Part shown: positions 34,862 through 53,238 of the stretch, in pieces
Position numbering within the stretch: position 1 is the stretch's first letter
Layout of the letters: each line of letters begins with the position of its first letter
From: a virus
Taxonomy: Duplodnaviria; Caudoviricetes
DNA length: 64,000 bases
Strand: one strand, 5' to 3'
IMG/VR virus record: IMGVR_UViG_3300029288_000139
Span: 1-64,000 of that record
Made by a program: the position numbers and the translations under genes
The notes under the pieces: model-generated
Seen by the model: only the letters and a program-made list of their open reading frames with translations
Told to the model about the DNA's origin: nothing
Databases searched by the model: none

Positions 34862-35836
34862 TTAAATGCCATCGGCATAATACATCGTTTCCGGATACAC
34901 GATTTCAACTACACCAAGACGACCGAAATAAGTCGTCAAATGGTAAATCGAACGATACTCCAACGGAGTTCTCTGCAATGGAACCAACGGATAACGAACA
35001 CGATTCTTGTCCTGAGTATAAACAATCATACGATCAGTTGCTACTGCAGGAGAACCAGCCGGAGTTCCTCTTCCTACCAACCATTTGCAAGGCTGAATAT
35101 CAAGTTTCTTACCATTGATCTTCAGAGCAATACAATTATCTTCCAAGAAGGACAGAATGCTTATGTTGCCTGCATCAGAAACTTTTTGAGAAGTAATATA
35201 GGCAAACTGTGCCGGAGGAAGAAGAAGTTTGGAGGGACACACTGCGTATGCTGCTGCCGCCCAACATGCCTGGATAAGACTGTTAACATCTTCCAGAATT
35301 TCATCAGGCGTTTTTTCTGTCCACAGAGTACTACCAGCAGCACCAGTCGCAACTGAGGCAGAGGTAACATTGGGATTATTCAGCATTCCATATCTGGAAA
35401 GAATATCATCCCCAATATATACCATTTCATCAACATCCATCTGGTATTTAATCTGCATGGCCTGATATTTCTGAGCATCAACCGGACGACCTAACTGCTG
35501 AGCAGAAATCAACTCCGGAATGGTGTAAGAAATTTCAATGCCCCACAGATACAAAGGTGAACTGGTCTTCCCAATATCAAGAGCAGGACCAGGAATAGCA
35601 TTGGAATTTTTACCAATCCAGTTTTTACCATTGGTCTCAGGGGCACCAGCAGTCGCAAAAGAGCTGTTGGTGAAACTGGAAACTTCATCAGCGATGCTAA
35701 CATCTTCTCTTAAATCAATATCACGACCCCACGTGACATTGTAAAGGGGTTCATGCAGATTCTGGTCTAATCTTTCAAGCTCTCCAATCAGGAAAGCACC
35801 CGTACTATCAATTGTATATTTGTCGTATGTCAACAT
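34862..35836 (-). CDS. major capsid protein (DUF2184-like)
   Basis: GAFLIGELERLD, YTIPEL..AQQLGRP.D.QK, TPDEIL.D, YFGRLG.VE..YP. Confidence 0.9.
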   Translation of the reverse strand: MLTYDKYTIDSTGAFLIGELERLDQNLHEPLYNVTWGRDIDLREDVSIADEVSSFTNSSFATAGAPETNGKNWIGKNSNAIPGPALDIGKTSSPLYLWGIEISYTIPELISAQQLGRPVDAQKYQAMQIKYQMDVDEMVYIGDDILSRYGMLNNPNVTSASVATGAAGSTLWTEKTPDEILEDVNSLIQACWAAAAYAVCPSKLLLPPAQFAYITSQKVSDAGNISILSFLEDNCIALKINGKKLDIQPCKWLVGRGTPAGSPAVATDRMIVYTQDKNRVRYPLVPLQRTPLEYRSIYHLTTYFGRLGVVEIVYPETMYYADGI

Positions 35837-35869: not shown

Positions 35870-36331
35870 TTAAATATTAAAAGAAATTTCAACATTACCA
35901 TTATCGTCAGCTGCACCTTCAAATTTAGCTCCCGTCACAGCAGTAGCTCCTGTAGCATCAGCCTGAATCAATCCAGTTGTGTTATTGACATAAACCGCTC
36001 CATCGATAGCTGGAGTTCCCAACGTATTCAGAACAGTCATATAACCAGAACGGAGAATATCACAGGTCTGATTAACTGAAGGAGTTCCACCACCCAAACT
36101 CTGATTGGTAATATTTTCCATCTGAGTCGGATAAGGACGGACCAGAAATCCAAGGATTGTACCGGAACCAGCGTAAGGCTGAATCTTACCAGCAACTTTA
36201 ACAACCGGAACACCATAAACGGTAACCGGAGTATCAGGATCCATAACATTGGGTTCAATTTTCGCAACTTCCAACCGTGTCACCGCACCAGCAATTCCAG
36301 CCGGCATTCTATACAAAAACGCATTACTCAT
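35870..36331 (-). CDS. capsid decoration/cement protein
   Basis: AFLYRMPAGIAG, GFLVRPYP, LRSGYM.V; precedes the MCP. Confidence 0.8.
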   Translation of the reverse strand: MSNAFLYRMPAGIAGAVTRLEVAKIEPNVMDPDTPVTVYGVPVVKVAGKIQPYAGSGTILGFLVRPYPTQMENITNQSLGGGTPSVNQTCDILRSGYMTVLNTLGTPAIDGAVYVNNTTGLIQADATGATAVTGAKFEGAADDNGNVEISFNI

Positions 36332-36361: not shown

Positions 36362-37837
36362 TTACTTTCTTTTCCAAAACTCTTTGTTTTTCTGATTGAT
36401 GTCTCTGATAGAAGAAACACTTTCAGCAGTATTTGAAATGACAGAATCTTTTACGAATCTGTTATTTCTATCTTTGACTGAATTTGTTACAGCAACAAAG
36501 GCAATACCCAATGAAGTTCTGTCAAGCTTATCAATATCCGTTTTCTTGATGATCGAACCAACGACATCAGCATCAGAAGTAAATGCAGCCTTCAAAGCTT
36601 TTCTCTTAATCTTGTCTAAAGAATTCAAGTGATCTTTTGTAGGCTTAGAAATTCTGATGCCAGGACAAAGCAAGTCCGCTCTATAAGCCACATCATGAAA
36701 CATTGAATCTGCTGTCATTGCTTCTTCTTTTTCCCGCTCTTCCTTCTCATCAGGATCTTCATCTTCTGTTTCGTCTTCTTTTTTCTTTTCAATCTCTTCA
36801 TTTTCAGAATTAACCACAAAAGACTTTCTGATTAAAGAACCTCCCAAAGGACTCAAAGCTCCTGTTCCTTCAGCATCATTTTCAAAAGCTTTGTTCTCTT
36901 TTTCAAGAACTTCTTCTGTGTTAACTGTATCAGCATCTCCTGCAACTCCAGAAGCAGACTTTACAAAAGCTTCAATAATACCTATCAGTCTATTGATATT
37001 GTTATTTAACATTCCAATAGTTACTTCTGACTCTGAAACTCCCTGATTAACAGGCTCCTTAGCAATTTCTTCTCCTTCCTTAGGTATTATGGCTTCTTCA
37101 GAAGAAGAATTTCCAGCTTCTTCTTCGATCTGATCAGAAGCTACCTCCACTAGCTTATCAGCTTTCTCTTCTTCGGACAACTCTACAAAATCATCATCCT
37201 TGATGAGTCTTCGATAGGCTTTTTTCAACTTGTCTTTAAATTTCATAGCATCTTTTTCCTCCTTATCATTTGTATTATTACAAGTACATTTACCACAATT
37301 GGTACACGCCTTATCTCCTATTGCACACCTATGCCCTGCCCTCCCTCTCATTACTAAAGCAATATGATTACCAATTATATTTTTTTGGATACCTATTCCA
37401 GTTTCCAACTGTTCATAATCAGCATCATACCCACAAGAAATTTCTCTCATACCATTTTTAACCAATTCAATAGCCTTCTTAGTTGTCACAACAATATCTC
37501 CAATAAGAAGATCTAATTTTTCTCGTGCTCCCCTTCTTACATTGGTTAAAAAACCATGAGCTAAATCTCCCCAATTTTCAGGGGTGACTATTTCATCTGG
37601 GTGGTCAATTGTGAATGGTTTCCCTTCAAAAGATGAGATTGCTTCTGGTTTGAAAACCTCATCCTCTGTTCTTTTGATAAGAACCAATCCATCACGATTA
37701 GGTTCTATAGGAACTTCGTCTCCTTTATATGTTTGTTCCCCAATCTTTGCAATGGGAACATCATAACAAATTAAAAACCCTTCTGGAGTCTCTCCAATAT
37801 GTTCGCTTATCTTTTCTGCAACATAAAATCTTTTCAT
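36362..37837 (-). CDS. prohead protease/scaffold (DUF2213-like)
   Basis: TPEGFLIC.DVPIA, FEGKPFTIDHP, EISCGYDA, NHIALV.RGRAG..C.IGD; acidic C-terminal scaffold. Confidence 0.9.
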   Translation of the reverse strand: MKRFYVAEKISEHIGETPEGFLICYDVPIAKIGEQTYKGDEVPIEPNRDGLVLIKRTEDEVFKPEAISSFEGKPFTIDHPDEIVTPENWGDLAHGFLTNVRRGAREKLDLLIGDIVVTTKKAIELVKNGMREISCGYDADYEQLETGIGIQKNIIGNHIALVMRGRAGHRCAIGDKACTNCGKCTCNNTNDKEEKDAMKFKDKLKKAYRRLIKDDDFVELSEEEKADKLVEVASDQIEEEAGNSSSEEAIIPKEGEEIAKEPVNQGVSESEVTIGMLNNNINRLIGIIEAFVKSASGVAGDADTVNTEEVLEKENKAFENDAEGTGALSPLGGSLIRKSFVVNSENEEIEKKKEDETEDEDPDEKEEREKEEAMTADSMFHDVAYRADLLCPGIRISKPTKDHLNSLDKIKRKALKAAFTSDADVVGSIIKKTDIDKLDRTSLGIAFVAVTNSVKDRNNRFVKDSVISNTAESVSSIRDINQKNKEFWKRK

Positions 37838-37848
37838 ATTTTCAATCC

Positions 37849-39120
37849 TTACATCACAACTATCATTTGTGGTTTAAATGATGAAACAGGCGGAACTGGT
37901 GTTTCTGTCGCACTAATTAACGCTCCTGCCGTTCCATTCTCCCTGCCATATCCAGTGGGGCCTGCTGGAGCCTTTAAAACATAATAAGTGAAACTAACTA
38001 TATCACTTGTAGGAAGAAGTGTAGTATCACATCCATATACAATTTGCATACCACCACCCAAATCAATAGTATACTCACCACTTACAGAGCAGTCAAAGGG
38101 GATGGAATTAATTGTAACAACTTTAGTCGTTGCGTTCCATGAACTCCCCTCCACAGGATCTATGCCATAAGGTAGGCCTAACTCTTCTGTCATCGATACG
38201 AGCCAAAATCCAGCTAAACCAAAACCATCATAACTAACTGAATCACCTATCTGAACATCATTAGGACTTGGTGTATCAGTAAGAGACCCCTGATTCCAAG
38301 TTGATTGAATGGTTACTTTATTTAATCCAACTCCAGCAATACTCCCTGTTCCATCACATTGCTGTGCGCCTACTGATGTTACGTTGGTTAATGAAGCAGT
38401 TGAATCATTGGCATTAAAATCATATCCTTTACTCCAGACCGTACAACAATTTAACTTTCCAGAAGTTATGGTTGGATGGTATAACTCTGTAAGATGAGTA
38501 AGTGTTAAGTTTTCAACCTTCCCTCCAGTAAGTCGAAATTTATTCATTAATAAATGGTCTCTCATACCTAACAGTCGAACAGAAGATGAAACGTCTACAT
38601 GATCACCAATCCATGATAAGTCTTCATCAATTATTGATTCATAGACAAGAACAACACACTCTGTTTCAAACGAACCTCCGTAAACAATAGCATAATATGA
38701 CTGTGTCCATGTTGTAAGGTCTTTCCCAGTACCCAGTGTAAAATAACCACCTGTATAAGGTGCACCTTCAACTGTTATAGTTCCTGAAAAGGTACTAGAA
38801 AGAGTAGCAAATGTAACAGTGTCTCCATAGAAAATTTCTTCTGTTACAGAGTCTTTTCCAAAAGCTCTGACAGAATAAGTTATTCCCGGCATACAGCCAT
38901 ACATCGGAGTAGTTTCTGTTGTGTTCTTTATATAAGCTCCAACAGCTAAATCGCTTAACACTTTTTGAGTATTAGCGTCATAAACAGGTGTTCCTGTGCC
39001 TTTCATCCAACAAAAGCCATATTCACTAAGAGCATTGTCTTTTGAAACAAGAGTTCCGTTGAAAGTAAAACCAAACTTTCCTATATTAGTTGGAGCCTGT
39101 GTTGTTATTACATTAGCCAT
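37849..39120 (-). CDS. FN3-like-domain virion protein
   Basis: EYGFCW...TYSVRAF...YGDTVTFAT, the same repeat type as in 14516..18424. Confidence 0.65.
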   Translation of the reverse strand: MANVITTQAPTNIGKFGFTFNGTLVSKDNALSEYGFCWMKGTGTPVYDANTQKVLSDLAVGAYIKNTTETTPMYGCMPGITYSVRAFGKDSVTEEIFYGDTVTFATLSSTFSGTITVEGAPYTGGYFTLGTGKDLTTWTQSYYAIVYGGSFETECVVLVYESIIDEDLSWIGDHVDVSSSVRLLGMRDHLLMNKFRLTGGKVENLTLTHLTELYHPTITSGKLNCCTVWSKGYDFNANDSTASLTNVTSVGAQQCDGTGSIAGVGLNKVTIQSTWNQGSLTDTPSPNDVQIGDSVSYDGFGLAGFWLVSMTEELGLPYGIDPVEGSSWNATTKVVTINSIPFDCSVSGEYTIDLGGGMQIVYGCDTTLLPTSDIVSFTYYVLKAPAGPTGYGRENGTAGALISATETPVPPVSSFKPQMIVVM

Positions 39121-39123
39121 TTA

Positions 39124-40860
39124 TTACTCCTGAATCTCAAACCAAATATTCAATCCCTTTGCTGGGGTGGTATGAACATAATCAACATTAAATGTAATTA
39201 TATCTCCTTTAACAACGGCAGGATTTGAAATCTCTGTTTGAGGCGAATTATTCCTTGAAGTCTTTTCTCCACTATTTATTTCTATCCTAACATCAGGTGA
39301 ATCTTGAAAAATGGTTGTTCCATTGACTAATATATCAACAGTCATGGGTTCTTCAGGACTGTTTGAATCACTTCCTGCTATTGTATTGTAAGCACCACAA
39401 GCAACTATATTACCAGTTATTGGACATTCAAAGTCTCCTCCCAAACTTGTTCCTATTGAACAATTAGTGTCATGAGCAACTAAAATAACTGTAACAGATC
39501 TTATAGCCGATGCCATGCTTTGAACAGCTGAAAGTTCTGCAGCAGTTAAGTGATATCTTTGTCCAGCCTGACCTCCTTGCAAAGAACTTAAATCATTGTG
39601 AGTAAAATCAGAAGAAGATTGGTCTCCTGTATTACTACCTGATGTATTTTCAATAACTGTTTTCTCTGCACTTGTTACATGATAGTATTCTTCAGGAGAA
39701 ATTGACCCTCCCTGTAAATCTGATATATTATTATGAGAAATATCGGAAGTTAAGTTATGAGTATTCTGTAAACTGTTATGGTCAAAGTCACTAGAATCTT
39801 GATCTCCTGTATTACTACCGCTAGTGTTCTGAACTACTGTATGTTCTGCAGAAGTCAAATGATAATATTCCAACGGCGAATCTGAACCACCTTGTAACAT
39901 GTTTAAATAATTATGATCAGTCTGAGGTTCATCAACAGTAAGAACTCCACCAGCTGTTATAGTCAATCCATCCCCAACAATCACCCTTCCTAAAGCACCT
40001 GTCGTTGCAATATTCGCACTCCATGAAGCATTACCTTGAGTATCAGAAATAAGAATACTTCCTGCAGCTCCACCTGTATATAATCTTATGGTTGCAAACG
40101 TCGGAGAACCATCTCTCTGCAAATTTTCCAACTGAGCCATAGCATCAGTCAGATATCCATAATCAGCAGCATTCAAATGATACATATAACTATTTATAGT
40201 ATCACCACCTTGTAAAGATTGCAGATTATTATGCTCAATATCTCCTTCAAGTATTGCTCCGGTTTCGGCCAATGTTTTCTTTGACCATCTTACGGGAGAA
40301 CTATCGCCAATAAGAAAATCATTTTCATCAACTGGATAATCAATATCCCAATTCGCTTGAACAACATCCCAATAAGCTCCAACGGCAGTTTCATCTCCAA
40401 CAGGCGTTCCGTCATGATTACAAAATATAGTGTCTCCAACTTCTACAACCTTTCCATTGACTCCACCTATTCTACCAGCAACAGAAACTTTCCATGCCCA
40501 TCCAGCATCAGCAGCAGGATAATTTGGATTCGCTGAGCAATCAATAACTCCTTTATACTCGAACACATCATGAAGACCAATGTCTTCCGGTATTAATGTA
40601 ATGTCTCCTGTCAAAGCATGACCATTAATTTTTGTTGTCTTTGGTACAAAAATAGCTTCAAACGGAGTCATATCTAATGGTAGTCCTGAAACAATTGAAC
40701 CGTCAGGCAATAACCATTTTGCTGGAAACCATTGATGTTTTACATACCAATCAGCTCTTTTTGCATCTGCTGGAGCCCACATAGCACCAGCAAAGGTTTG
40801 TATTGAACCATCGGGCATCAAGAACTTATTTGGAAAAGGTATTTCATTAACGTATGACAT
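39124..40860 (-). CDS. head fibre-like protein with HN..LQGG..YHL repeats
   Basis: four full and one partial repeat; several segments shared with 29804..33094. Confidence 0.7.
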   Translation of the reverse strand: MSYVNEIPFPNKFLMPDGSIQTFAGAMWAPADAKRADWYVKHQWFPAKWLLPDGSIVSGLPLDMTPFEAIFVPKTTKINGHALTGDITLIPEDIGLHDVFEYKGVIDCSANPNYPAADAGWAWKVSVAGRIGGVNGKVVEVGDTIFCNHDGTPVGDETAVGAYWDVVQANWDIDYPVDENDFLIGDSSPVRWSKKTLAETGAILEGDIEHNNLQSLQGGDTINSYMYHLNAADYGYLTDAMAQLENLQRDGSPTFATIRLYTGGAAGSILISDTQGNASWSANIATTGALGRVIVGDGLTITAGGVLTVDEPQTDHNYLNMLQGGSDSPLEYYHLTSAEHTVVQNTSGSNTGDQDSSDFDHNSLQNTHNLTSDISHNNISDLQGGSISPEEYYHVTSAEKTVIENTSGSNTGDQSSSDFTHNDLSSLQGGQAGQRYHLTAAELSAVQSMASAIRSVTVILVAHDTNCSIGTSLGGDFECPITGNIVACGAYNTIAGSDSNSPEEPMTVDILVNGTTIFQDSPDVRIEINSGEKTSRNNSPQTEISNPAVVKGDIITFNVDYVHTTPAKGLNIWFEIQE

Positions 40861-40872
40861 TATAATTGCTCC

Positions 40873-41856
40873 TTATAACATTGTTTTGAAAGAAAACTTT
40901 AAAGCTTCATAAATATCTCTACCTTGAGCTTTTGCATCATAATATATTTCTTTTGCTTTCTCATAAGTAATGTCCTTGCCATATACATTCTTGGCTGTTG
41001 CTTGTATAAATCTTATTTGAGTGTCTTCTGATTTATTATATTCATCATCTTTTGTTTTGGAGTCTTTTACTTTATTCTGGTCAATTAATCTTCGTGCTGT
41101 TGTTCTTGCTCCAAGCAAAGTTTCTTGAACTCCTTTATAAATCTCCCTACCATTTTTCTGTATTGTAAATTCAAAAACATCTTTCCCATACTCTCTAACA
41201 GAAATTTTATAGTCTCTGTAATCGTCGATCCACACGTCTTTTGTTTTGGAGTCTTTGCTTTCTCTAAATCTCTTTGCAACTTCCTTCTGGCCATCATTAA
41301 ATCCGTCATTCCAAGAATCTTTCAAATCTGCGTAACCAGATCTTGAAACATTTGTATATGGATTCGCAGAAGAAGACTTACCCATCAATGCAGCTTCATG
41401 ACCTTCATCATACGCTTCTTCGGAACGAGAATCATCTTTTGTTTTGGAATCTTCAACCCAAACCTGCTCTGTTTTACCATTTGGATATCTGATTTCTATG
41501 TGTTGTCTTGGTTTGGGGTCACTCCAATATTCAAATTGACCTTCTTTAGCTTTTTTCTTTAACTCTTCAATTGTCATGGATTTTGTACCAAAAGAAGATG
41601 TCCCTGCATCTTTTGTTTTGGAGTCTTTTGATAGATTATTATCTATTCTCTTTTCAATTTCTTCTAAGGTAAGATATTGAATTTTATCTCCTGCACTACC
41701 AATATAATAATATCTGGTCTGTCCAATATGACTATCCACATCTTTAAAAATATCGACTCCCTTATAAGTCAAAAACTTTTCACTATCTAACACCAATTCT
41801 CTTTGTCCTGAAATTATTCTTCCATTCTTAATGTCTTTGATTTTGTGAAGTAACAT
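40873..41856 (-). CDS. modular polyprotein E (leader plus 5 modules joined by DSKTKD)
   Basis: four DSKTKD linkers; leader MLLHKIKDIKNGRII. Confidence 0.85.
   Translation of the reverse strand: MLLHKIKDIKNGRIISGQRELVLDSEKFLTYKGVDIFKDVDSHIGQTRYYYIGSAGDKIQYLTLEEIEKRIDNNLSKDSKTKDAGTSSFGTKSMTIEELKKKAKEGQFEYWSDPKPRQHIEIRYPNGKTEQVWVEDSKTKDDSRSEEAYDEGHEAALMGKSSSANPYTNVSRSGYADLKDSWNDGFNDGQKEVAKRFRESKDSKTKDVWIDDYRDYKISVREYGKDVFEFTIQKNGREIYKGVQETLLGARTTARRLIDQNKVKDSKTKDDEYNKSEDTQIRFIQATAKNVYGKDITYEKAKEIYYDAKAQGRDIYEALKFSFKTML
41046..41625 (-). repeat. four copies of the 19-bp linker GAYTCCAAAACAAAAGAYG
   Basis: copies at 41046-41064, 41235-41253, 41433-41451, 41607-41625. Confidence 0.95.
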
Positions 41857-41867
41857 TTTATCCTCCC

Positions 41868-42773
41868 TTATGCTGCTTTCAAAAATTCTTGTTCTGATAT
41901 TTTCATAAATTCTCTTTTATTCATTCTGACAATTTTTCCACCAACATGTACTCTTGCTGGCCAACTCACATCATCAAGCCTAATAAGCGGAGCTGCATAA
42001 CAACGACAATTGAACGTAGCTCCCGGCAAATAATCCCCATACGGTTTTGCCTTTCGATCAGGAAACAAAGCTTCTGGATTTGGAGGATCATTCCATGTAC
42101 ATAAAACATTATCCATCTTCCTATGAGCACTTCTTGTTCTTCCATCTCCAGAATATCCCCCCGTAGCTTTCCATACAAACCAATTTAATCCGATCTCTTC
42201 TGCCCTTGCCTTCACCATATTTGTAACCATCTTTGAAGTTTCTGTTCTGGCAATAAGCATGGCTCGGGATTTTGTAACTATTCCTGTTTGTGACAACTCC
42301 TTAGCAACTGTTTCCGCTCTTGTCCCTGTAGTTAAATTATTTCTAACAATTTCTTGTATTCTTTCCGCAGCACTTAATGGAAGAGAAGTGATTAACTTAA
42401 CATTATCTCGTATAAAAGCATCCATTGCTTCTTTTATATTTGCTCTTGCTAATTCTCTCTTCATTTCCTCACTCATTCGTTCTGAATGCTGTTCCCATTC
42501 CTTTATATCTTCATTCTTCAAACTATAAACAAGCTTTGTTACTGTTTGCTGTGCCCAATCTTTTAATCTAACAGAATAATCATGTAATCTATTTTGAACA
42601 TTCTCAATATCTTCCAATGTAACTTTGTCTTTATTTGTATCTAATTTCTTAGTAAAGTCTTTCACAATACTATCAACTTCACGACCAACATTAGCAAGGT
42701 TTCTAGCATACTCTTGTTCAATTCTTTTAGTAAGTTTCTTGCTTACTATTCTGTTGGGTTTCTTCTCATCCAT
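41868..42773 (-). CDS. minor head protein (Mu gpF / SPP1 gp7-like)
   Basis: RAMLIARTETSK, W.A.G...TRSAH..MD, PG..FNCRC.A.P. Confidence 0.9.
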   Translation of the reverse strand: MDEKKPNRIVSKKLTKRIEQEYARNLANVGREVDSIVKDFTKKLDTNKDKVTLEDIENVQNRLHDYSVRLKDWAQQTVTKLVYSLKNEDIKEWEQHSERMSEEMKRELARANIKEAMDAFIRDNVKLITSLPLSAAERIQEIVRNNLTTGTRAETVAKELSQTGIVTKSRAMLIARTETSKMVTNMVKARAEEIGLNWFVWKATGGYSGDGRTRSAHRKMDNVLCTWNDPPNPEALFPDRKAKPYGDYLPGATFNCRCYAAPLIRLDDVSWPARVHVGGKIVRMNKREFMKISEQEFLKAA

Positions 42774-44522
42774 TTACGTTTCCTTTGTAAAAAACTTTTT
42801 TGCTACTTCTTTTGCTGCATTTTGTATCTTTTCTTTCATCCCAGAAAAATTCAAGTTTATCTTTAAAGGACTTACTACTTCACTAATTGATTTCACTCCG
42901 GGTATTGCATTAGGAACTTCGTCTCTCTGGCTTTCTTTTTCCTTTTCAGAGATTGATTGAGCTTTACCAACAATTGGAGACATAGTTGATTGAGCCTTCA
43001 TTTCTTCCGGTGTTGGAGATGATAAACTAACACCTCCTCCTGAAATTCCTACATCTTCCTCTTCTTCTTTATTTTGAGAAGAGGGTTCTACTTCAGACTC
43101 TGGGACAGAAGGAGACGGCATCCCCTCAGAAGGAATCCCAGAAGGAGGCTCATTCTCATCATCTTTCTTGGCCTTATTAATATCATCTTCAGTTAAATTC
43201 GTAAAGCGTCCTGTGATTCTAGATGATTGAATTAATTCTTTTGTTGCTATTTCTTTACTTACTAATCCTCCTGAATAAGCAGCATTAATTGTTGTCATAT
43301 CGGAGGTTGCTATTTCAGCCATCTCTTTATCGCTCATCTGCCATAATGAATTGAACTTATACTCAAAATCAGGAGGCAATCTCTTTCCTAACTCCGAAAC
43401 TGAAAGAACTTCTAACAATTTTGTCATGGAAGGACGTAATTTATTTTCTTGCTCACGATAAACATTGTCGTAGTAATTTCTTAAATCAGTTTCCCCAGTA
43501 TTGAATCCTGCAGGAGATTGTCCAAATAATCTAACCAATGGTATTCCTGTAGCTCCAGAAACTTGCTGTCCTAATTCTTGTAGTAAATCAGCAGCCCCAC
43601 TAATCGCTGAATTCGCATGAGGTACAAAATCGTCTAGCCCATCAAGCATTGTTATTCCTTCGTTTGTTTGCATCTGTCTAATATAATCCCATTGCTTAAT
43701 GATGGCGTTCTCTTCTCTCCCACCTAACGCCAATGCTTCTCTTAATCCGTTAATCTTAACAACTCTTAAGTATGCTCTGTACATTAACTGACTAGCTCCA
43801 AGAGTCGCTGAATCATAAGCAATCAGTCTGTCATATATTCTCTCTACAATAGAAAGTCCCCAATGATTTTCCATCAACCTTTGATAATAAGGAAGGGTAA
43901 TTCCATCAAATCTTAATACACGACTATAATGAATTTTAATGTTAGGAAGTTTTGAACCACCGACGGATGTGTGAACTCGATAGAATTTTGGTTTCCCAAA
44001 ATCTTTATTAAGGTCGGTTATTAAATTGGATAGGTCTGGTTCACACATCCATCGATCTAACACCAATAACCCTCTAAAAGTTTTTTGTCCTATCTTGTCG
44101 TAATCAATTGGCTTACTATAATCTGCTCCGTCAATAAGCATAATGGCAATAGCACCGCCATATAATCTTGCCCATCTTATTGTATTACCTAATGATTCCC
44201 AAACATCAAAATCAGACATAGCAACATACAACTTTTTAACTTCATCAGGGGACAATTTTGATAAAATGTCAATACCCATCTTTGTCATATCTTCAGCAAT
44301 AACATCAACAGCCTGTCCAATTAACCATGAGCTTCTATATCCTGCCTCTAGAGTAACTCTTTGTCTACTCATTAAATTATTTAATGAGTAAGTGGCTTGA
44401 GACATTGGATTATCAGTTCCATATCCAACTCTGTGCATGAAATTGGAGAAGGAGTCTTCTGTAAATTTCCCTCCAACTTTCTTATCCATTGTAGAAGTTC
44501 TTGTAAAATTTACTTTTGCCAT
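42774..44522 (-). CDS. portal protein (DUF1073-like)
   Basis: YRSSWL...VD..AEDMT..G, WARLYGGA, GATGIPLVRLFGQSPAG..TGE.D..NYYD. Confidence 0.9.
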   Translation of the reverse strand: MAKVNFTRTSTMDKKVGGKFTEDSFSNFMHRVGYGTDNPMSQATYSLNNLMSRQRVTLEAGYRSSWLIGQAVDVIAEDMTKMGIDILSKLSPDEVKKLYVAMSDFDVWESLGNTIRWARLYGGAIAIMLIDGADYSKPIDYDKIGQKTFRGLLVLDRWMCEPDLSNLITDLNKDFGKPKFYRVHTSVGGSKLPNIKIHYSRVLRFDGITLPYYQRLMENHWGLSIVERIYDRLIAYDSATLGASQLMYRAYLRVVKINGLREALALGGREENAIIKQWDYIRQMQTNEGITMLDGLDDFVPHANSAISGAADLLQELGQQVSGATGIPLVRLFGQSPAGFNTGETDLRNYYDNVYREQENKLRPSMTKLLEVLSVSELGKRLPPDFEYKFNSLWQMSDKEMAEIATSDMTTINAAYSGGLVSKEIATKELIQSSRITGRFTNLTEDDINKAKKDDENEPPSGIPSEGMPSPSVPESEVEPSSQNKEEEEDVGISGGGVSLSSPTPEEMKAQSTMSPIVGKAQSISEKEKESQRDEVPNAIPGVKSISEVVSPLKINLNFSGMKEKIQNAAKEVAKKFFTKET

Positions 44523-44954
44523 TTATCTGAACTCCAGTGTCTCTTTAAATAAGTACATTTGCATTTCTGTTATCTCACCTAAATATTCTTGGCTTTGATA
44601 ATGAGCTAAAAAAGCATCACGTGCTGATTCTTTGTTGTCAAATCCCAACATAATCTTTTCTTCACGATCATCTTTACCGAGTCTAATAATATAAACGGAA
44701 GAAGCGTAAGGATTATGACCGACAAAACAATCAATGCACTCACCATCAACGCCGACCGTCCCATCAATGTAGCCGTATCGATAGAACATAGTGGTTTTTC
44801 CCGTCTGTCCTTCATTATTCTTCCATCTCCTAACACTGCCTTCATCATTCTCCACAGTAATAGGCAGTCCTTGAAATGTTAATTTACTTGTTCCACCTTT
44901 TTCATTCTTTGGAACTACTGTTCCATTTACAATATCAACTTCTGAAAATAACAT
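44523..44954 (-). CDS. ORF D: leader plus inorganic pyrophosphatase-like (InPase) domain
   Basis: I.VEN..GS.R, YGYI.GT.G.DG...D.FVG, E.K.MLGF.....A..AF..HY; start moved to MLFSEV. Confidence 0.75.
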   Translation of the reverse strand: MLFSEVDIVNGTVVPKNEKGGTSKLTFQGLPITVENDEGSVRRWKNNEGQTGKTTMFYRYGYIDGTVGVDGECIDCFVGHNPYASSVYIIRLGKDDREEKIMLGFDNKESARDAFLAHYQSQEYLGEITEMQMYLFKETLEFR

Positions 44955-44959
44955 AAATT

Positions 44960-45184
44960 TTATTTCTCTTTGTCTTTTTCTACCCAAAAATTATCTATCT
45001 TCTGTTTCAAATCTTCCCAAGAAGAAGAATTAAATCTTTTATTCTCTTCTCTTCCTAAACCAACAAACTCTCCCTCAGATTGTGATATTTGAAAACCTTT
45101 ATAAATTAAAGGAGGAATTTCATAAGCGTCTTCCGTCTTCCTTCTAATCATTCCATTTTCAACTGTGACTTCATTACTTAACAT
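44960..45184 (-). CDS. ORF C: leader plus one small module
   Basis: AAGGAG RBS; MLSNEVTVENGMIRRKTED. Confidence 0.75.
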   Translation of the reverse strand: MLSNEVTVENGMIRRKTEDAYEIPPLIYKGFQISQSEGEFVGLGREENKRFNSSSWEDLKQKIDNFWVEKDKEK

Positions 45185-45185
45185 T

Positions 45186-47240
45186 TTATTCTCCTTTAGC
45201 TGTCTTCTCTTCATCCACCGCTTCCTGCTTCGTACTTTGTAATCTGTCCGGTGGATGATTCGGAGGACTGTATAATGTATACAGTTTCAAAGGTTCTTCT
45301 CCAATATTTTTTATATTGTGTTGAGTCCCAGCTTTAATCACAATAGAAGAACCATCTTGAAGAAGTTGCTTTCCTTGGCCTTTTACTTCTAATATTCCTT
45401 CTCCTTTTTCAATGCGGAAAAACTGGTCAACATCAGCATGAACTTCCATACCAATATCTTCCTCCGGAAGTAATGACATCAAAACCAATTGAATATTCTT
45501 GCCAGTAAAAAGAACTTTTCTAAAAGCATTATTCTCAACTGTTTCCTTTTCAATATTCCTTACATCAAACTCAGGAGTCTTTTCAAAAACAGTATTACCA
45601 AAGCTTTCATAACTTTCATGAGTTGGTTCAGGGTCTACGTCTTTAACCATTCCAACATGCTCGGTAACAATCTTGTAAATCTCTTCTTCCAGTTTATGAG
45701 GATCAATACCATTCTGTTCTGCAAAAGCGTGAACCTTATCATCACCAGGATTAGGATTTGCTTTAAAGAACGCAATAAGTTTTTCTTTGATGTTGTCTTG
45801 ATCTTTCGTTTTCTTGTCCCCTGTCTTTACTTTCTTCACTTCAACATTATTTTTACTTCCATCAAATTCATTCTGTAAAGAACCTTTTACTTTTCCTGCT
45901 TTCAATTCCAATGAAGAAACACATTTTGTTCTTGCTACATCTGGAGTCGGAGCATCTATATTATGGTAATAATGATTTTCACCTTTGAGATTCAAAGTTA
46001 CATCATACAATTCGTCTTTTATTTTCTTATCAACATTACCTACTCTTTCATTTGGTTCTGCTTTTCTTGTCCCTTGTATCTCAGCATTATTACTTTCAAC
46101 CCATTTCATCATCTCAGTTCTGTTGCTAAAAATACGACGCCATTTTGTATTACTATTTCCTTTTACTCCATAAGCTTCTATTTTTTCATTGTCTTGATCC
46201 TTCGTCTTTCTCTTCACAGCTTTCTTCAATGAGTCAAGTGCTCTTAATGCTGTATCTTTTGCTATGCTTCTTTTTAAATTTTTTATTTGCTTTAAGGCAA
46301 CTGTTGCTGCGTCTTTTGTTTTGGAGTCTGTCACTGTGTTTAATGCTTTGCGGCGAAAAGCTTCTAAGTTCTGAATCATGAATTTAAGACGAATACTTCC
46401 AATTGGTGATGTTTTTAACTTTTCAATCTCTTCATCAGCATGAGAATTAATTTCATTTCTCGTTGCTTCTTCATAAAAACGTTTATTGCATATAGGGCAT
46501 ATATTAACAATTGCATCTCTCGTCTTCATGTCTACAGTTCCTTCCTTCTCATGTATTTCTTTGACCAAATGACCAACAGCTTCTTCTTCAGTACCTTCCA
46601 CTACAGTATAGGTTTTTCCATTATATTTAGCTGATGCAGCAAAATACCCATTTTTACCCTGATTTACTGTCATGTTAATTCCATAAATGGATACTGAATG
46701 AGAATCACCAACACCAGCTCTTATACTTTCAATTTGTTGTTTCACAGCTTTTATCTCCTCTTCTGTTTCCCGAAACTCTTCTAGGTCTCCTGTAATTCTA
46801 CAATTGATTTTATATCTTTCTAATTGATCAATTCTTTTTTTCAAAGTCTCAACATTTGGATTATCATCTCTCAATGTAATTCTTCCGTCACAATGGGGGC
46901 AATGTTTTGTGGTGTAAAAGGAAGATTGATCTTTTCCCCATTTCCTCATTCTTGGTCTTATTACATCTCTTTGGAACTGAGCATTACATTTGGGACAGGC
47001 GATAAGATCCTGGTCTTTTGTAATGGAAACAACATAGGGTCTATCTATCCTACCACATCTGGGGCAGGAAATCATAGGACCAGCAATGATTCTGTTTCCT
47101 TCAATTGTATAATCATTAGAGGAAATTGTCCATCTATGTTTACATCTAACATCATTACATTCAACTACAATATTATTTTCCTCAGAGTCTCTTACAATGA
47201 TTCTGTTGTCTTTTATTTCTTTTACTTCAGAGAGTAACAT
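45186..47240 (-). CDS. modular polyprotein B (leader, about 10 mini-modules, C-terminal cupin)
   Basis: AGGAGAG RBS; CxxC modules; TKD/TRD linkers; cupin IGMEVH..VDQFFRIEKG...IKAGTQHN...LYTLYSPP.H. Confidence 0.85.
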   Translation of the reverse strand: MLLSEVKEIKDNRIIVRDSEENNIVVECNDVRCKHRWTISSNDYTIEGNRIIAGPMISCPRCGRIDRPYVVSITKDQDLIACPKCNAQFQRDVIRPRMRKWGKDQSSFYTTKHCPHCDGRITLRDDNPNVETLKKRIDQLERYKINCRITGDLEEFRETEEEIKAVKQQIESIRAGVGDSHSVSIYGINMTVNQGKNGYFAASAKYNGKTYTVVEGTEEEAVGHLVKEIHEKEGTVDMKTRDAIVNICPICNKRFYEEATRNEINSHADEEIEKLKTSPIGSIRLKFMIQNLEAFRRKALNTVTDSKTKDAATVALKQIKNLKRSIAKDTALRALDSLKKAVKRKTKDQDNEKIEAYGVKGNSNTKWRRIFSNRTEMMKWVESNNAEIQGTRKAEPNERVGNVDKKIKDELYDVTLNLKGENHYYHNIDAPTPDVARTKCVSSLELKAGKVKGSLQNEFDGSKNNVEVKKVKTGDKKTKDQDNIKEKLIAFFKANPNPGDDKVHAFAEQNGIDPHKLEEEIYKIVTEHVGMVKDVDPEPTHESYESFGNTVFEKTPEFDVRNIEKETVENNAFRKVLFTGKNIQLVLMSLLPEEDIGMEVHADVDQFFRIEKGEGILEVKGQGKQLLQDGSSIVIKAGTQHNIKNIGEEPLKLYTLYSPPNHPPDRLQSTKQEAVDEEKTAKGE
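46310..46328 (-). repeat. 19-bp DSKTKD linker copy
   Basis: GACTCCAAAACAAAAGACG on the minus strand. Confidence 0.9.
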
Positions 47241-47321
47241 TTTATTTTGTCTCTCCTCTTTTAAACTGATCTGCTCTTTCAAACAATCTTCTTATTGCTG
47301 CATTACTCCAACCGTCATCTT

Positions 47322-47714
47322 TTAAGGACTCTGTCGTATGTCGGAAAACGTTTTAAATTTCTGCAGATATTCTATTTTTAACGCTCTTATTTGCTCCATA
47401 AGGTTTTTCTCTTCTTGACTGCCTACGGCAGTTTTTCCAAGTTGGTCATCCAACTTTTTAATCTTATTTTCTAAATCTTCTCTTTCTCCGTCTTTTGTTT
47501 TGGAATCTCTTTGTCCTTTTAAAATCAAATCTTGAATTTCTTTTTCAAGCTGTTTAATCTCATATTCAACATCCCCAGTTTCTCTTCCTTCGTTTTTCCA
47601 ATCCTGCAATCTTCTTTTTGCATCAGAAAGCTCTTCTCTTAAATCAGATAGTTCACTATCTTTTGTCTTTATTCTTACCATACCATTAACAACATCAACG
47701 TCTTTGGATAACAT
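47322..47714 (-). CDS. modular protein A (leader plus two coiled-coil modules)
   Basis: MLSKDVDVVNGMVRIKTKD...RDSKTKD. Confidence 0.8.
   Translation of the reverse strand: MLSKDVDVVNGMVRIKTKDSELSDLREELSDAKRRLQDWKNEGRETGDVEYEIKQLEKEIQDLILKGQRDSKTKDGEREDLENKIKKLDDQLGKTAVGSQEEKNLMEQIRALKIEYLQKFKTFSDIRQSP
47489..47507 (-). repeat. 19-bp DSKTKD linker copy
   Basis: GATTCCAAAACAAAAGACG on the minus strand. Confidence 0.9.
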
Positions 47715-47732: not shown

Positions 47733-47930
47733 TTACAAATTATTAAGATGCAGAGAATAAGAAGCTTTCTGTCTTCTTACTTTTGTATCTGCTGTATTTA
47801 AACTACAACTTTCAATTCTAGTGGCAAAAGACAAATGCTCTTTACAAAAGAAATAACTATTTTTATCCAACTTCTTACCACAAACTTGTCCTGATAAATA
47901 TTCCCATCGGCAAGTTCTTCTCTTATCCAT
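47733..47930 (-). CDS. small C3H zinc-finger-like protein
   Basis: C...C...CKEH; start overlaps the terL stop. Confidence 0.55.
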   Translation of the reverse strand: MDKRRTCRWEYLSGQVCGKKLDKNSYFFCKEHLSFATRIESCSLNTADTKVRRQKASYSLHLNNL

Positions 47931-49134
47931 TTGCCGCCCTCCCATAAACAAAATCAGCAAAAGAAGGTTTGCTGTTGATATAACCATCTAAAGCATATCT
48001 CAATCCATCAATACAATGATTATTCTTATCAATAATGACCGGAAGGATTTCTCCTGTTTTGGAATCTTGTTTATAGGAATAGGATTTCATTTCATTCAAT
48101 GTATGTTTACATCTTGGATGAATAACAATCTCTTCAAATTTCTTTAAGTAAGCAATTCCATCTTCAACACTGCCTTGCCACTTTCTTGCAGCCTCAACTC
48201 TTAATCCATGTTTTTTTCTTAAATAGGAAATTGTTTCAGGCCTGCTGTTGTCTGCTTTAATTGGCCATTTTTCTGCAGACGAAACTGAATTTTTAAATAA
48301 GGCAGGAATCTCATCAAGCTCAACTCCAATACCGTATGCCTCCCCATCAACAAACAGTTTATTATCTTGGATAAAGCATCTAATTAATGTTGTTGGATCA
48401 TTACTAAATCCCCAGTCAGCTCCATGAAAGAATCGTGCATCTTCTGGCGTCTCAAAAACATCTTCTTTAAACTTGCCTTTAAAGATTGATGCATTGGAAA
48501 TTGATAATGGCTCTCCTTCCCATATATGAAGGTATGAATCATAATCAACTCTTTTTAAATAATCTTTCTCTCTTAATAATGTTTCTGGTAAGTATGGATT
48601 GTCTAACCAGGATACTTTCTTAGTAAAGCAATTGTCGGGAGGATTTAAAACAAATCTTTGATATGTGGGATCTTTAATTTCTCCTGTATTGAATGTAATG
48701 ATAATACAGCTTGCTTCTTTCCGAATGGTTGGTATTAATATTGACCAAGATAATTCTGATGTTGATTGTGCCTCTTCCACCCAGCATATATCAACACCCT
48801 CAAGAGATTTTATTTCATTAATGTTATGTTTGAGTCCTTTGAATAAGAATTCACTACCAGAGTAACTTGTAATTGATGCTTTTGTTATATTATAATAAGA
48901 TTGAAGAGAAAGGAACTCTATTTGATCACAAAGAAGTTTATAAACTGAATCTGTAATTGATGTTTGCAATTCTCTTGTGCATAATATTCTTAACTTCATA
49001 TAAGAAGCTATTGCTACTAGAAATCTTGCAACTGCCCATGACTTAGCTCCTCCACGTCCACCCCAGTAAACAAGATATCTATAAGTGAATAAAGCAAGTT
49101 CTTTATATGCAGAAGGTATAGACACCTTTATCAT
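47923..49134 (-). CDS. terL: terminase large subunit (PBSX-type)
   Basis: WGGRGGAKS, RELQTSI, WVEEAQ, DWGFSNDP, NHCIDGLRYA. Confidence 0.95.
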   Translation of the reverse strand: MIKVSIPSAYKELALFTYRYLVYWGGRGGAKSWAVARFLVAIASYMKLRILCTRELQTSITDSVYKLLCDQIEFLSLQSYYNITKASITSYSGSEFLFKGLKHNINEIKSLEGVDICWVEEAQSTSELSWSILIPTIRKEASCIIITFNTGEIKDPTYQRFVLNPPDNCFTKKVSWLDNPYLPETLLREKDYLKRVDYDSYLHIWEGEPLSISNASIFKGKFKEDVFETPEDARFFHGADWGFSNDPTTLIRCFIQDNKLFVDGEAYGIGVELDEIPALFKNSVSSAEKWPIKADNSRPETISYLRKKHGLRVEAARKWQGSVEDGIAYLKKFEEIVIHPRCKHTLNEMKSYSYKQDSKTGEILPVIIDKNNHCIDGLRYALDGYINSKPSFADFVYGRAANG

Positions 49135-49136
49135 TA

Positions 49137-49718
49137 TCAGTCTTTCTCCAATTCGGCTTTAATTCCATTCCCAAAATCAATTAAAATCTGTTGAGGCACC
49201 AAAGGACTTCCATCAACTCCTGTCACTTCCACTTTACTATTATCTCCATACTTCCTTGGCAGCAAATGAGCAGCTATCCATTTTCTTGATTCGACTCTTA
49301 ATCTGCTTCTTTGGACATATTCTTGGTCAACTTTAATATATTTCTTTCCACTCTTATCTTCCAATTCCATAAAGTCATTTGTACCATCATCGGATATATC
49401 AATTATACTATCAACCAAACATTGTGCTTGTTGTTCTCTGGCTGCCATGTAGGACTTTAAAAATTCTTCCCTATACCATTTTGATCCTTTCCATAACCAT
49501 CTCATAATTGTTGGGTATGTAGGGTTTCCATCTTGTTTACAAAAAGAAGTTAATGATCTTCCTAAAGACAACCATTCACAGATTTCATTCCCTAATTGTT
49601 CTGTATATGTTTGAGGTCTCCCAGGTAATCTTTCCTCTGGTTCTTTCTTGGGTCTTCCTCTAGGACGTTTTTTCAGTGTTTCTTCTTCTTCTATGAATTT
49701 GTAGGTTATCTTATTCAT
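49137..49718 (-). CDS. terS: terminase small subunit
   Basis: GRPQTYT....EICE.L..GRSL, Y.AARE.QA, RSRLRVESRKWIAA.LLPRKYG. Confidence 0.9.
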   Translation of the reverse strand: MNKITYKFIEEEETLKKRPRGRPKKEPEERLPGRPQTYTEQLGNEICEWLSLGRSLTSFCKQDGNPTYPTIMRWLWKGSKWYREEFLKSYMAAREQQAQCLVDSIIDISDDGTNDFMELEDKSGKKYIKVDQEYVQRSRLRVESRKWIAAHLLPRKYGDNSKVEVTGVDGSPLVPQQILIDFGNGIKAELEKD

Positions 49719-52336: not shown

Positions 52337-52536
52337 TAATTATGGACAAAATGGAAATTGAAATTTTGGAAGATGGAACAATTAAAACCAGCACAGACAA
52401 AATATCAATGCCTAACCACGGAGGAGCAGAGATGCTAATCAAAGAAATGGTTAAATCAGCTGGAGGCACAGAGACGAGAATTAGGAAAGCCAATCATACT
52501 CTTCATGAGCATAATGGACATTTCCACACACATTAA
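52333..52536 (+). CDS. DUF2997-like protein
   Basis: MEIEILEDGTIK; C-terminal HxHxH. Confidence 0.55.
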   Translation: MIIMDKMEIEILEDGTIKTSTDKISMPNHGGAEMLIKEMVKSAGGTETRIRKANHTLHEHNGHFHTH

Positions 52537-52569
52537 CTAATTAACCCTATAACAAAAAGGAGAAAAAAG

Positions 52570-53238
52570 ATGAACATAGAAATTAAAAACAGATTTACAA
52601 ACAAGATTATTTTGTGTGGAGAATACGAATCAATTAAGGATTGCTTGGAAAAAAATAGAGGAACAAACCTCGAAGGCGCAGACCTCAGAGGAACAAACCT
52701 CGAAGGCGCATATCTCAGAGGCGCATATCTCGAAGGCGCATACCTCGAAGGCGCATATCTCAGAGGCGCATATCTCGAAGGCGCATATCTCGAAGGCGCA
52801 TATCTCAGAGGCGCATATCTCAGAGGCGCATATCTCAGAGGCGCATATCTCGAAGGCGCATATCTCGAAGGCGCATATCTCGAAGGCGCAAATCTCAGAG
52901 GCGCATATCTCGAAGGCGCATATCTCGGAGGCGCATATCTCGAAGGCGAAAATCTCAGAGGCGCATATCTCGAAGGCGCAAAAAACATAACATTTCCAAT
53001 TTTAAATATTCAAGGCACGCAACATCATCTGTTTTATATGTCCGGCAAAATCTCTATTGGTTGTGAAAATCACACCATTGATAAGTGGATTAAGGATTAC
53101 AAAACCATCGGAGAAGAACATGGATATACGGATGAACAAATCAAGGAATATTTTGGTTACATTAAAATCTGTAAAAAGTTAGCAGAGGACAACAAGAAAG
53201 AGAAAAAAGATGGACTTTTAAACAAAAAAGGAGAATGA
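52570..53238 (+). CDS. pentapeptide-repeat protein
   Basis: 21 GAYL(E/R)-type units. Confidence 0.9.
   Translation: MNIEIKNRFTNKIILCGEYESIKDCLEKNRGTNLEGADLRGTNLEGAYLRGAYLEGAYLEGAYLRGAYLEGAYLEGAYLRGAYLRGAYLRGAYLEGAYLEGAYLEGANLRGAYLEGAYLGGAYLEGENLRGAYLEGAKNITFPILNIQGTQHHLFYMSGKISIGCENHTIDKWIKDYKTIGEEHGYTDEQIKEYFGYIKICKKLAEDNKKEKKDGLLNKKGE
52660..52974 (+). repeat. 21 x 15-bp tandem repeat
   Basis: GGCGCATATCTC(GAA/AGA) units. Confidence 0.95.

Follow-up and report, generated by a model that had tools for sequence, protein, structure and literature searches.

The head gene region of this phage raises the question of why five otherwise dissimilar open reading frames (ORFs), here called A to E, begin with related short peptides, and why some of them are chains of small domains separated by a six-residue linker. 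The window analysed consists of positions 1-64,000 of an 83.5 kb genome (an IMG/VR record). The genes are arranged in the order terS, terL, A-D, portal, MuF, E, two unknown genes, DUF2213 protease-scaffold, cement and capsid (Table 1), in agreement with the context of terL, portal and minor-head genes given in the initial annotation. All five leader ORFs are on the minus strand with good ribosome-binding sites upstream, and the true start of B is Met15 of a longer ORF. It appears moderately probable that A-E are head cargo, addressed by the leader, cut by the head protease and injected into the host, with the linker serving also as a recombination joint.

Table 1. Positions in the window of the leader genes, the linkers and the head genes compared with them
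Feature	Position	Strand	Remarks
Gene A, 130 aa	47322..47714	-	Subtype-1 leader, then two coiled-coil modules
Gene B, 684 aa	45186..47240	-	Subtype-2 leader, then ~9-10 modules: zinc ribbons, helical units, C-terminal cupin
Gene C, 74 aa	44960..45184	-	Subtype-1 leader ending K-T-E-D, then one small module
Gene D, 143 aa	44523..44954	-	Subtype-1 leader and InPase domain; no K/R-D site after the leader
Gene E, 327 aa	40873..41856	-	Subtype-2 leader and five modules; module 3 RMF-like
Leader of A, residues 1-19, ends K-T-K-D	47658..47714	-	22.3 bits
Leader of B, residues 1-18, ends V-R-D	47187..47240	-	
Leader of E, residues 1-24, ends V-L-D	41785..41856	-	Low pLDDT at residues 15-25
MuF-like minor head protein	41868..42773	-	Separates two cargo slots
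Major capsid protein	34862..35836	-	Met1 exactly where the propeptide of relatives ends, after T-[KR]-D
Cement/decoration protein	35870..36331	-	Some relatives with an N-terminal extension ending T-R-D
Portal protein	42774..44522	-	
T21-E-D23-S24, portal N-terminus	44451..44462	-	T, D and S invariant in 7/7 aligned portals
DSKTKD linker 1 of E, residues 78-83	41608..41625	-	Inside low-pLDDT stretch 77-90
DSKTKD linker 2 of E, residues 136-141	41434..41451	-	Low-confidence stretch
DSKTKD linker 3 of E, residues 202-207	41236..41253	-	Low-confidence stretch
DSKTKD linker 4 of E, residues 265-270	41047..41064	-	Low-confidence stretch
DSKTKD linker of A, residues 70-75	47490..47507	-	
DSKTKD linker of B, residues 305-310	46311..46328	-	
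DUF2213 prohead protease (residues 1-176), acidic scaffold and conserved C-terminal domain	36362..37837	-	Presumed processing enzyme
Scaffold P-T-K-D site, immediately preceding the conserved C-terminal domain	36632..36643	-	Aligns with P-T-x-D in most aligned family members

The five related leaders are all present as originally quoted and fall into two subtypes. Leaders A, C and D have 7-10 of 16 residues in common, and B and E have 9 of 16. Between the subtypes the identity is 2-5 of 16, with the pattern ML..[DEK][VI]..[VI].[ND][GN] retained; when relatives are included, the consensus is ML..[DE][VI]..[VI].NG.[VI]. A leader HMM run against the whole genome gave exactly five matches, each at the start of an ORF and scoring 16-22 bits, the next-best match (9 bits) being outside any gene. 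The earlier claim that the sequences are unrelated after the leader also holds: no significant similarity was found among the bodies of the five ORFs, and the short matches are linkers only. A short N-terminal peptide is therefore common to otherwise unrelated proteins, five here and about 30 in relatives. Most leaders are closed by K/R-D, which matches the motif at the capsid propeptide junctions of relatives and would, by the cut rule inferred below, be a cleavage site. The endings of C (T-E-D) and E (V-L-D) and the lack of K/R-D in D mean, however, that leader removal cannot be universal or strictly dependent on T-K-D.

The likeness of the leaders is not that of conserved translation-initiation DNA, because only the ribosome-binding site and ATG-TTA are common at the DNA level; the downstream codons differ and the residue pattern is kept. 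A chance origin of leaders and linkers was rejected on the basis of shuffles, the genome-wide HMM scan and conservation in relatives.

The modules are of the kinds first described, namely coiled coils, ribbons, an RMF-like unit and a cupin, the last matching the Cupin_2 profile in B with an E-value of 2e-12. The initial annotation had counted five modules in E, as found here, and about ten in B, where x-K/R-D sites delimit about 9-10. It had also named the packing of the modules into one domain, with KTKD buried, as the observation that would speak against separate units. The AlphaFold2 model of E consists instead of five separate folds (pTM 0.31), and its four linkers fall within the four internal low-confidence stretches. 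Compared with the PDB by Foldseek, the complete E model had no match at E <=0.001, its weak local matches being to small alpha/beta proteins, MmoD and AcrF1 among them.

The families recognisable among the chain modules include RMF, cupin, InPase and DUF5661. Zinc-ribbon and RMF profile scores in this genome are under the Pfam thresholds, module 3 of E scoring 21.8 bits with the RMF profile PF04957 against a curated cut-off of 27.9. In a scan of 44 chain proteins, 10 match the RMF profile, the lowest E-value being 4e-13. Module 3 superimposes on RMF bound to the 70S ribosome (4V8G chain AV) with a Z value of 7.5 and an rmsd of 1.2 Å over 52/53 residues, a fold match that was weighed together with the profile matches because such Z values are common in that search. 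Modules 4 and 5 gave only generic small folds in a VIA-align search (Z 5-7.6), and no function was therefore assigned to them. The domain of D is an InPase (PF18823, E 6e-31), which in other phages is found inside minor head, virion and DarB-like proteins. Such fusions are in keeping with packaging, as is that of a topoisomerase IB to the portal C-terminus in the relative L007.

The linkers form a family of their own. In six-frame translation DSKTKD occurs six times, always within A, B or E, and KTKD occurs nine times in these genes and once elsewhere; in A the K-T-K-D motif ends at residues 19 and 75. One and the same 14-mer, TCCAAAACAAAAGA, encodes each of the six DSKTKD copies, and the observed count was reached in 0 of 100 shuffles. 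Leader ORFs exceed the remaining ORFs at those loci about 10 times in the frequency of DSKTKD and about 5 times in that of [TS][KR]D. Lys and Asp abound in the chain proteins, and plain [KR]D is itself enriched 2.6 times in them, so that some of the counted sites may reflect composition only.

The conservation of the linker extends to its codons. Ser is encoded by TCC in 37 of 44 DSKTKD copies, compared with 7% of the Ser codons in the genome, a bias suggesting that the conservation may in part be due to recombination or gene conversion and not to selection of a protease site. The Asp codons and some of the Lys and Thr codons nevertheless vary while the peptide stays the same, and the diverged linkers K-T-R-D, R-K-T-K-D and I-T-K-D retain T-[KR]-D with other codons. 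Being nearly identical as DNA, the linker is probably also a microhomology joint for the swapping of modules. This recombination role would be a second one and did not form part of the initial annotation.

Outside this genome, 14 viral contigs related to it and a single MAG contain about 30 further distinct leader ORFs. They are on the head-gene strand, in the slots between terL and portal or after MuF, and the cargo behind the leader differs, comprising DUF3326, InPase, unknown modules and reshuffled ones. The leader is thus conserved in related phages at the same head-region location with different module content, as had been anticipated. Metagenomic homologues of E consist of a leader followed by DSKTKD-joined mosaics. 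The second module of A recurs in the relatives L037 and P0014; modules of B recur in L014, L020, L032, L033, L037 and L124, and that of C in L014, L037, L052 and P0013. Orthologues of D (in L045, L047 and L048) have a leader with T/S-K-D. Of the ends of similarity between phages, 29% coincide exactly with [TS][KR]D sites or termini; for random positions the figure is 2%. The 173 segments fall into 81 families, which recur at different ordinal positions, the family counts being rough since single-linkage clustering merged one cluster of 50 segments, some segments still containing two modules. No homologue of E came to light when 50,697 records of cultured phages were searched by tblastn, so that the authors know of no cultured model for the chain system. 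The hosts suggested by MAG bins (Omnitrophota, Caldisericales, Prolixibacteraceae) were set aside as unreliable for phage contigs.

The same motif recurs in the head proteins of relatives. Among 32 capsid proteins of wider relatives that have an N-terminal extension, 27 carry T-[KRT]-D at most 4 residues from the equivalent of Met1, and in the other five the motif is altered or lies further upstream. On the head strand there are 45 occurrences of the extended motif, 26 of them in capsid propeptides, 13 in protease-scaffold proteins, two at cement N-termini and four elsewhere. P-T-x-D is found at one aligned scaffold position in most aligned members of the DUF2213 family. The cultured Acinetobacter phage A785.1 has the same three sites (capsid, scaffold and portal), its portal reading K-F-T-R-D-S-F at the T-x-D-S position. 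The presence of T-[KR]-D at the capsid-propeptide, scaffold, cement and portal sites of relatives means that a cut after this motif is, by sequence comparison, well supported. The cut after T-x-D that was originally proposed is in this way independently supported in the form T-[KR]-D; the leader of D is followed by no such site. Since the DSKTKD joint corresponds to the apparent capsid trimming site of the family head protease, it is probable that the modules enter the capsid and are separated there by cleavage.

The candidate enzyme is the protease-scaffold protein. It matches the DUF2213 profile with an E-value of 9e-47 and is called a head maturation protease in PHROG families. The model of the DUF2213 domain (pLDDT 84) has the T4 gp21-like protease fold: its best match in the PDB is T4 gp21 (5JBL; E 1e-4, probability 1.0, TM 0.47-0.53), with the EBV, KSHV and HCMV proteases matching at weaker ranks. 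Residues H79, S134 and H158, invariant in 12-15 members of the family, are candidates for the catalytic residues. The family is present in 911 cultured-phage records. Searches of the literature on DUF2213, DUF2184 and the linker peptide turned up neither the cut site nor the system, and no cleavage specificity of a DUF2213 protease has been published.

Taken together, these observations lead us to infer the following sequence of events. The leader, a peptide of 16-20 residues in two subtypes and probably a beta-hairpin, would address A-E to the assembling prohead. There the scaffold-fused DUF2213 serine protease, of the gp21/assemblin fold, would cut after the Asp of T/S-[KR]-D, for which D-S-K-T-K-D may represent the optimal site. 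Cutting would strip most of the leaders and free the 40-130-residue modules of A, B and E. The freed RMF-like module, zinc ribbons, coiled coils and cupin, and the InPase enzyme, would remain in the capsid, enter the host together with the DNA and act there as effectors. The nearly identical linker DNA would probably provide a microhomology joint at which genes, and also different phages, exchange modules. A more specific proposal, that of a plug-and-play capsid cargo in which a new address peptide is combined with D-S-K-T-K-D as both a DUF2213 cut site and a 14-18-nt crossover word, is put forward tentatively, its chances being slightly short of even.

The conservation of the linker as DNA admits an explanation that requires no cutting, in which A-E are multi-domain ('polyvalent') head or accessory proteins and the linker is a flexible spacer kept as recombination microhomology. 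The six identical 14-mers, the preference for TCC in 37 of 44 copies against 7% and the shuffling of modules at linkers would all be accommodated, and phage polyvalent proteins with many shuffled domains are known (PMC5512222). This explanation would leave unaccounted for the same peptide motif at the capsid, scaffold, cement and portal sites of relatives, where there are no module chains. Moreover, the codons of the linker vary while the peptide stays, diverged linkers keep T-[KR]-D with other codons, and the leaders too end in K/R-D. Uncut proteins are unlikely. The roles of the linker as spacer or recombination joint and as protease site are compatible with each other.

Polyproteins that are cut by the head protease without being packaged would share the cut-site evidence of the favoured reading; their leader would be a docking (exosite) peptide or an inactivating propeptide, and the pieces would act late in the producing cell, where an RMF-like module could equally act on the ribosomes. 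Yet the protease is fused to the scaffold, and the leader genes are situated among the portal, MuF and protease genes. The prohead proteases of this fold in HK97, T4 and herpesviruses are co-assembled into the procapsid and are active there. The InPase is, in addition, physically fused to head-internal proteins in other phages. Cut but unpackaged polyproteins have a low probability, of roughly one chance in eight. It is very improbable that the chains are decoy or buffer substrates that regulate the protease or saturate host sensors of it. Cleavage by a prohead protease can activate CBASS enzymes of the host (PMC12991175), and each chain protein has many sites; modules that are folded, diverse, individually conserved across phages and assignable to recognisable families are, however, unexpected in mere decoys.

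The favoured reading, that of packaged and processed cargo, has partial parallels among known systems. In T4, cleavage by gp21 follows the rule L/I-x-E, with Glu at P1. Here P1 would be Asp, the leaders bear no sequence relation to the T4 peptide, and the DUF2213 protease is fused to the scaffold. Both systems have a short peptide common to unrelated proteins and a common protease fold: the T4 proteins IPI-III and Alt, encoded at a variable locus, share an N-terminal peptide ending at the gp21 cut motif and are packaged and injected (PMC9026906, PMC3012670). The T4 cargo consists of single proteins, whereas chains of up to about ten modules with a six-residue joint would be packaged here. In the giant phages phiKZ and SPN3US the prohead protease likewise processes many head-internal ejection and inner-body proteins, at a short motif whose last residue is acidic (PMC5694885, PMC7411985, PMC10052503). 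These proteases are, in contrast, of the T4 type and follow a Glu rule, the phage genomes exceed 200 kb, and neither a common leader nor a repeated near-invariant linker between exchangeable mini-domains is known to have been described for them.

Polyvalent proteins, as described by Iyer, Burroughs, Anand, de Souza and Aravind in 2017, contain two to 15 unrelated shuffled domains; the InPase is a hallmark domain, predicted to be packaged in the virion, and fusions to the portal were noted (PMC5512222). The chain proteins resemble them in having two or more unrelated shuffled small domains per polypeptide in a virion-gene context, in the predicted delivery with the DNA and in the InPase. That account proposes processing by an internal zincin-like MPTase and tethering to the head by MuF, portal or DarA fusion, and describes no conserved inter-domain joint. 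In the present system the leader would take the place of such fusions, and a scan of 44 chain proteins at an E-value of 1e-3 detected no peptidase family. The protease-scaffold gene is homologous to gp24 of the Pbunavirus Pa193 (E 5e-16), which stands in the same order with the cement and capsid genes. In the structural work on Pa193 (PDB 9B40), gp24 is annotated as scaffold only and 'possibly cleaved', the cut site not being given (PMC11456595). The difference is that cultured phages gave no homologue of the chain protein E.

If the proposal is correct, it provides a testable substrate rule for DUF2213 head proteases, whose status as proteases is itself unannotated in structural work. It would be the first such rule for the family and would apply to hundreds of cultured phages, Pbunavirus-like as well as many temperate enterobacterial and Acinetobacter phages. 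Protease-cut polyprotein effectors would then exist outside the T4-type and giant phages, with an exchangeable unit of 40-130 residues, and phage cargo would take the form of a virus-style polyprotein. Many anti-host factors, among them an RMF-like candidate for ribosome silencing, would be delivered in compact form. The natural address tag and cleavable joint could be used for loading foreign proteins into HK97-fold capsids. With conservation at both the peptide and the DNA level, the joint would show with unusual clarity how one sequence is selected for processing and evolvability together.

The virus record is linear, 83.5 kb long, with a G+C content of about 34%; the window comprises its first 64 kb. 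The head module lies on the minus strand in the order terS, terL, the leader-bearing ORFs A to D, portal, a MuF-like gene, the fifth leader-bearing ORF E, two unknown genes, the DUF2213 gene, cement and capsid. The 578-aa and 423-aa products of the two unknown genes gave zero matches in Pfam or PHROG. The 578-aa protein may be a head fibre. It has repeated motifs (L-Q-G-G-S-x-S-P-E-E-Y-Y-H-L-T and N-T-S-G-x-N-T-G-D-Q-S-S-x-D-F-T-H-N-D-L) in common with a 1096-aa fibre-like protein encoded further downstream. A small Cys-rich ORF without a leader, probably starting at an internal Met, is situated between terL and A and overlaps the 3' end of terL. Outside the module there is a pentapeptide-repeat protein with runs of G-A-Y-L-[ER]; its repeat maintains long ORFs in alternative frames and also on the complementary strand.

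Positions of the features discussed, in the window unless a related locus is named
Feature	Position	Strand
terS	49137-49718	minus
terL	47923-49134	minus
Small Cys-rich ORF	47733-47987	
A, module chain	47322-47714	minus
B, module chain	45186-47240	minus
C	44960-45184	minus
D, InPase domain	44523-44954	minus
Portal	42774-44522	minus
MuF-like protein	41868-42773	minus
E, module chain	40873-41856	minus
578-aa protein	39124-40860	minus
423-aa protein	37849-39120	minus
DUF2213 protein, 491 aa	36362-37837	minus
P-T-K-D in its scaffold part	36632-36643	minus
Cement protein	35870-36331	minus
Capsid protein	34862-35836	minus
1096-aa fibre-like protein	29804-33094	
Pentapeptide-repeat protein	52570-53238	
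ORFs left open by the repeat	52533-52988, 52616-52990	
Third-variant leader chain proteins	L052:4549-6594, L052:13050-13454, L029:1577-2842	
Portal-topoisomerase fusion	L007:9938-12913	

Each of the five ORF starts is preceded by a ribosome-binding site, and the leaders read as given in the initial annotation. Those of A, C and D (subtype 1) have 7-10 of 16 residues in common and those of B and E (subtype 2) nine of 16, with just 2-5 of 16 identical between the subtypes. Upon scanning the whole genome in six frames with an HMM of the leader, the five starts were found at 16-22 bits, and there was no other match inside a gene. Beyond residue 25 only short matches occur among A to E, all of them linkers, in agreement with the earlier description of the bodies as unrelated.

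Relatives were gathered by one scan with the linker DNA word, two with the portal and one with the capsid protein, giving more than 100 loci. All relatives with a portal identity of about 54% or more have the leader, placed exactly at the ORF Met on the head strand. About 30 distinct leader-tagged ORFs, from 14 contigs and one MAG contig, occupy the same slots as in the window (the terL-portal gap and immediately after MuF) while their cargo varies, so that the proposed conservation of leader and location with different module content is borne out. The leader precedes a DUF3326 protein and an unknown 307-aa protein in locus L007 and InPase in several related phages; others have chains of 600-1000 aa. 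Among 5.8 billion proteins only 16 clusters matched E, all unnamed metagenomic proteins consisting of a leader followed by a DSKTKD-joined mosaic; no E homologue was found among cultured phages. The leader/linker system forms a family and is not peculiar to this phage.

A third leader variant, M-L-[LV]-H-x-M-[LV]-K-x-V-K-[ND]-S ... [KR]-D, is found on chain proteins of some relatives, and in L032 the MuF protein itself opens with a short leader-like peptide ending in K-T-K-D. The L007 portal (66% identical) carries a C-terminal type IB topoisomerase domain (PF01028, E 6e-18), and the upstream cargo slot of this locus holds a phosphatidylserine-decarboxylase-like gene beside the leader-tagged DUF3326 gene. 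The nearest capsid homologues in prokaryote genome bins (L123, L124, L125) belong to contigs placed in bins of Omnitrophota (87% identity), Caldisericales (75%) and Prolixibacteraceae (77%), the binning of phage contigs being unreliable; L124 has a leader and DSKTKD chain after MuF.

The six copies of DSKTKD are confined to A, B and E, which also contain nine copies of K-T-K-D, with one elsewhere. In the AlphaFold2 model of E (mean pLDDT 74, pTM 0.31) five units are folded separately. The joints at residues 78-83, 136-141, 202-207 and 265-270 fall within its four internal low-confidence stretches, and the leader end within a fifth, upholding the initial view of separate modules whose linkers are not buried in one domain. 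Where similarity between phages breaks off, 29% of the ends coincide exactly with a terminus or a [TS][KR]D site and 44% are within two residues of one, compared with 2% and 8% for random positions. When 44 chain proteins were divided at these sites, 173 segments resulted (median 69 aa) in roughly 81 families, and the ordinal place of a family varies from chain to chain. The metagenomic homologue P0003 is 90% identical to E over modules 2-3 and differs on both sides of them.

Of the 44 chain proteins scanned, 10 matched RMF (best E 4e-13), five DUF5661, three CoiA_N-like zinc ribbons, two Cupin_2 and one DUF3326. Module 3 of E alone scores under the Pfam RMF threshold; its model superposes on ribosome-bound RMF with Z 7.5 and an rmsd of 1.2 Å for 52 of 53 residues. 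The presence of this RMF-like module suggests a predicted action on host ribosomes. The domain in D is InPase (E 6e-31), which in other phages is embedded within minor head, virion and DarB-like proteins and was predicted to be virion-packaged by Iyer et al. (PMC5512222).

The presumed processing enzyme gives hits to DUF2213 (E 9e-47) as well as to PHROG families annotated as head maturation protease. The best structural match to a model of residues 1-190 (pLDDT 84) is the T4 gp21 protease (5JBL, E 1e-4, probability 1.0), with herpesvirus proteases lower, and H79, S134 and H158 are invariant in the family members aligned. The sole solved homologue, Pa193 gp24, was termed just a scaffold, "possibly cleaved" (PMC11456595). 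A literature search found no published cut site for the DUF2213 family and no mention of the linker.

Prohead-protease sites of the HK97, T4 and phiKZ types are conserved short motifs at propeptide/mature junctions and in the scaffold. The main new evidence for a putative protease site is the occurrence of T-x-D in head proteins other than the cargo. Among 47 distinct capsid proteins of the wider family, whose portals are 45-50% identical and which includes many prophages, 32 are extended at the N-terminus by about 25-45 residues. T-[KRT]-D lies at most four residues from the position aligned to Met1 of the window capsid in 27 of these, the usual junction being R-A-R-T-R-D then M-x-T-F-D; the remaining five have F-T-D, F-K-D or a motif further upstream. 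In its extended form, [RK]-x-[RKQY]-T-[RK]-D, the motif has 45 copies on the head strand of these loci: 26 at capsid junctions, 13 in the protease-scaffold (for example K-K-K-T-K-D-S mid-scaffold, or just upstream of the protease domain), two in cement N-terminal extensions and four elsewhere. Most family members have P-T-x-D at one aligned scaffold position, just before the conserved C-terminal domain, and P-T-K-D of the window scaffold aligns with it. T21-x-D23-S24 is invariant in all seven aligned portals, and the cultured Acinetobacter phage A785.1 has the capsid, scaffold and portal sites. Capsid genes of the leader clade begin at the relatives' propeptide junction. Because the capsid and cement genes of this clade begin exactly after the relatives' T-[KR]-D extension junction, structural proteins seem to have shed their propeptides in the same lineage whose cargo proteins bear leaders. 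The subtype-1 leader ends (V-R-I-K-T-K-D) look like the relatives' capsid propeptide ends (I-R-A-R-T-R-D).

The joint is conserved also as DNA: the six window copies have an identical 14-mer, TCCAAAACAAAAGA. Its Ser codon is TCC in 37 of 44 DSKTKD copies from all loci, partly by ascertainment since many loci were found through that same DNA word, compared with a 7% share of TCC among all Ser codons of the genome; about 11 of 17 copies not used for locus finding have TCC (tally from codon lists). The flanking Asp codons are free to vary. Judged from these codons, peptide selection alone is insufficient for the conservation, and the joint is probably also a microhomology where modules recombine or are homogenised. 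This role is compatible with protease cleavage; diverged joints retain T-[KR]-D with changed codons. Part of the linker conservation may be attributable to recombination, and part of the K/R-D counts may reflect composition, since the chains are Lys/Asp-rich. These points count against the proposed mechanism, as do the missing site after the leader of D and the variant sites in C and E.

Of the proposed steps, cutting at the joints and at the ends of the leaders has the best support and, from the motifs, is quite probable. That the leader addresses proteins to the capsid is somewhat favoured, because of its analogy to the targeting sequence of T4, the gene position in the head module, and the InPase domain, which is fused to head-internal proteins elsewhere and leader-tagged here. 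Injection and effector roles are tentative, at slightly under an even chance. The T4 internal proteins and the protease-processed ejection proteins of giant phages follow the same logic as this predicted cargo, and the "polyvalent protein" concept overlaps with its chains. What is new is the combination of a leader family of its own, a proposed Asp-specific rule for the putative DUF2213 protease-scaffold, and a beads-on-a-string architecture whose six-residue joint is conserved both as peptide and as DNA.
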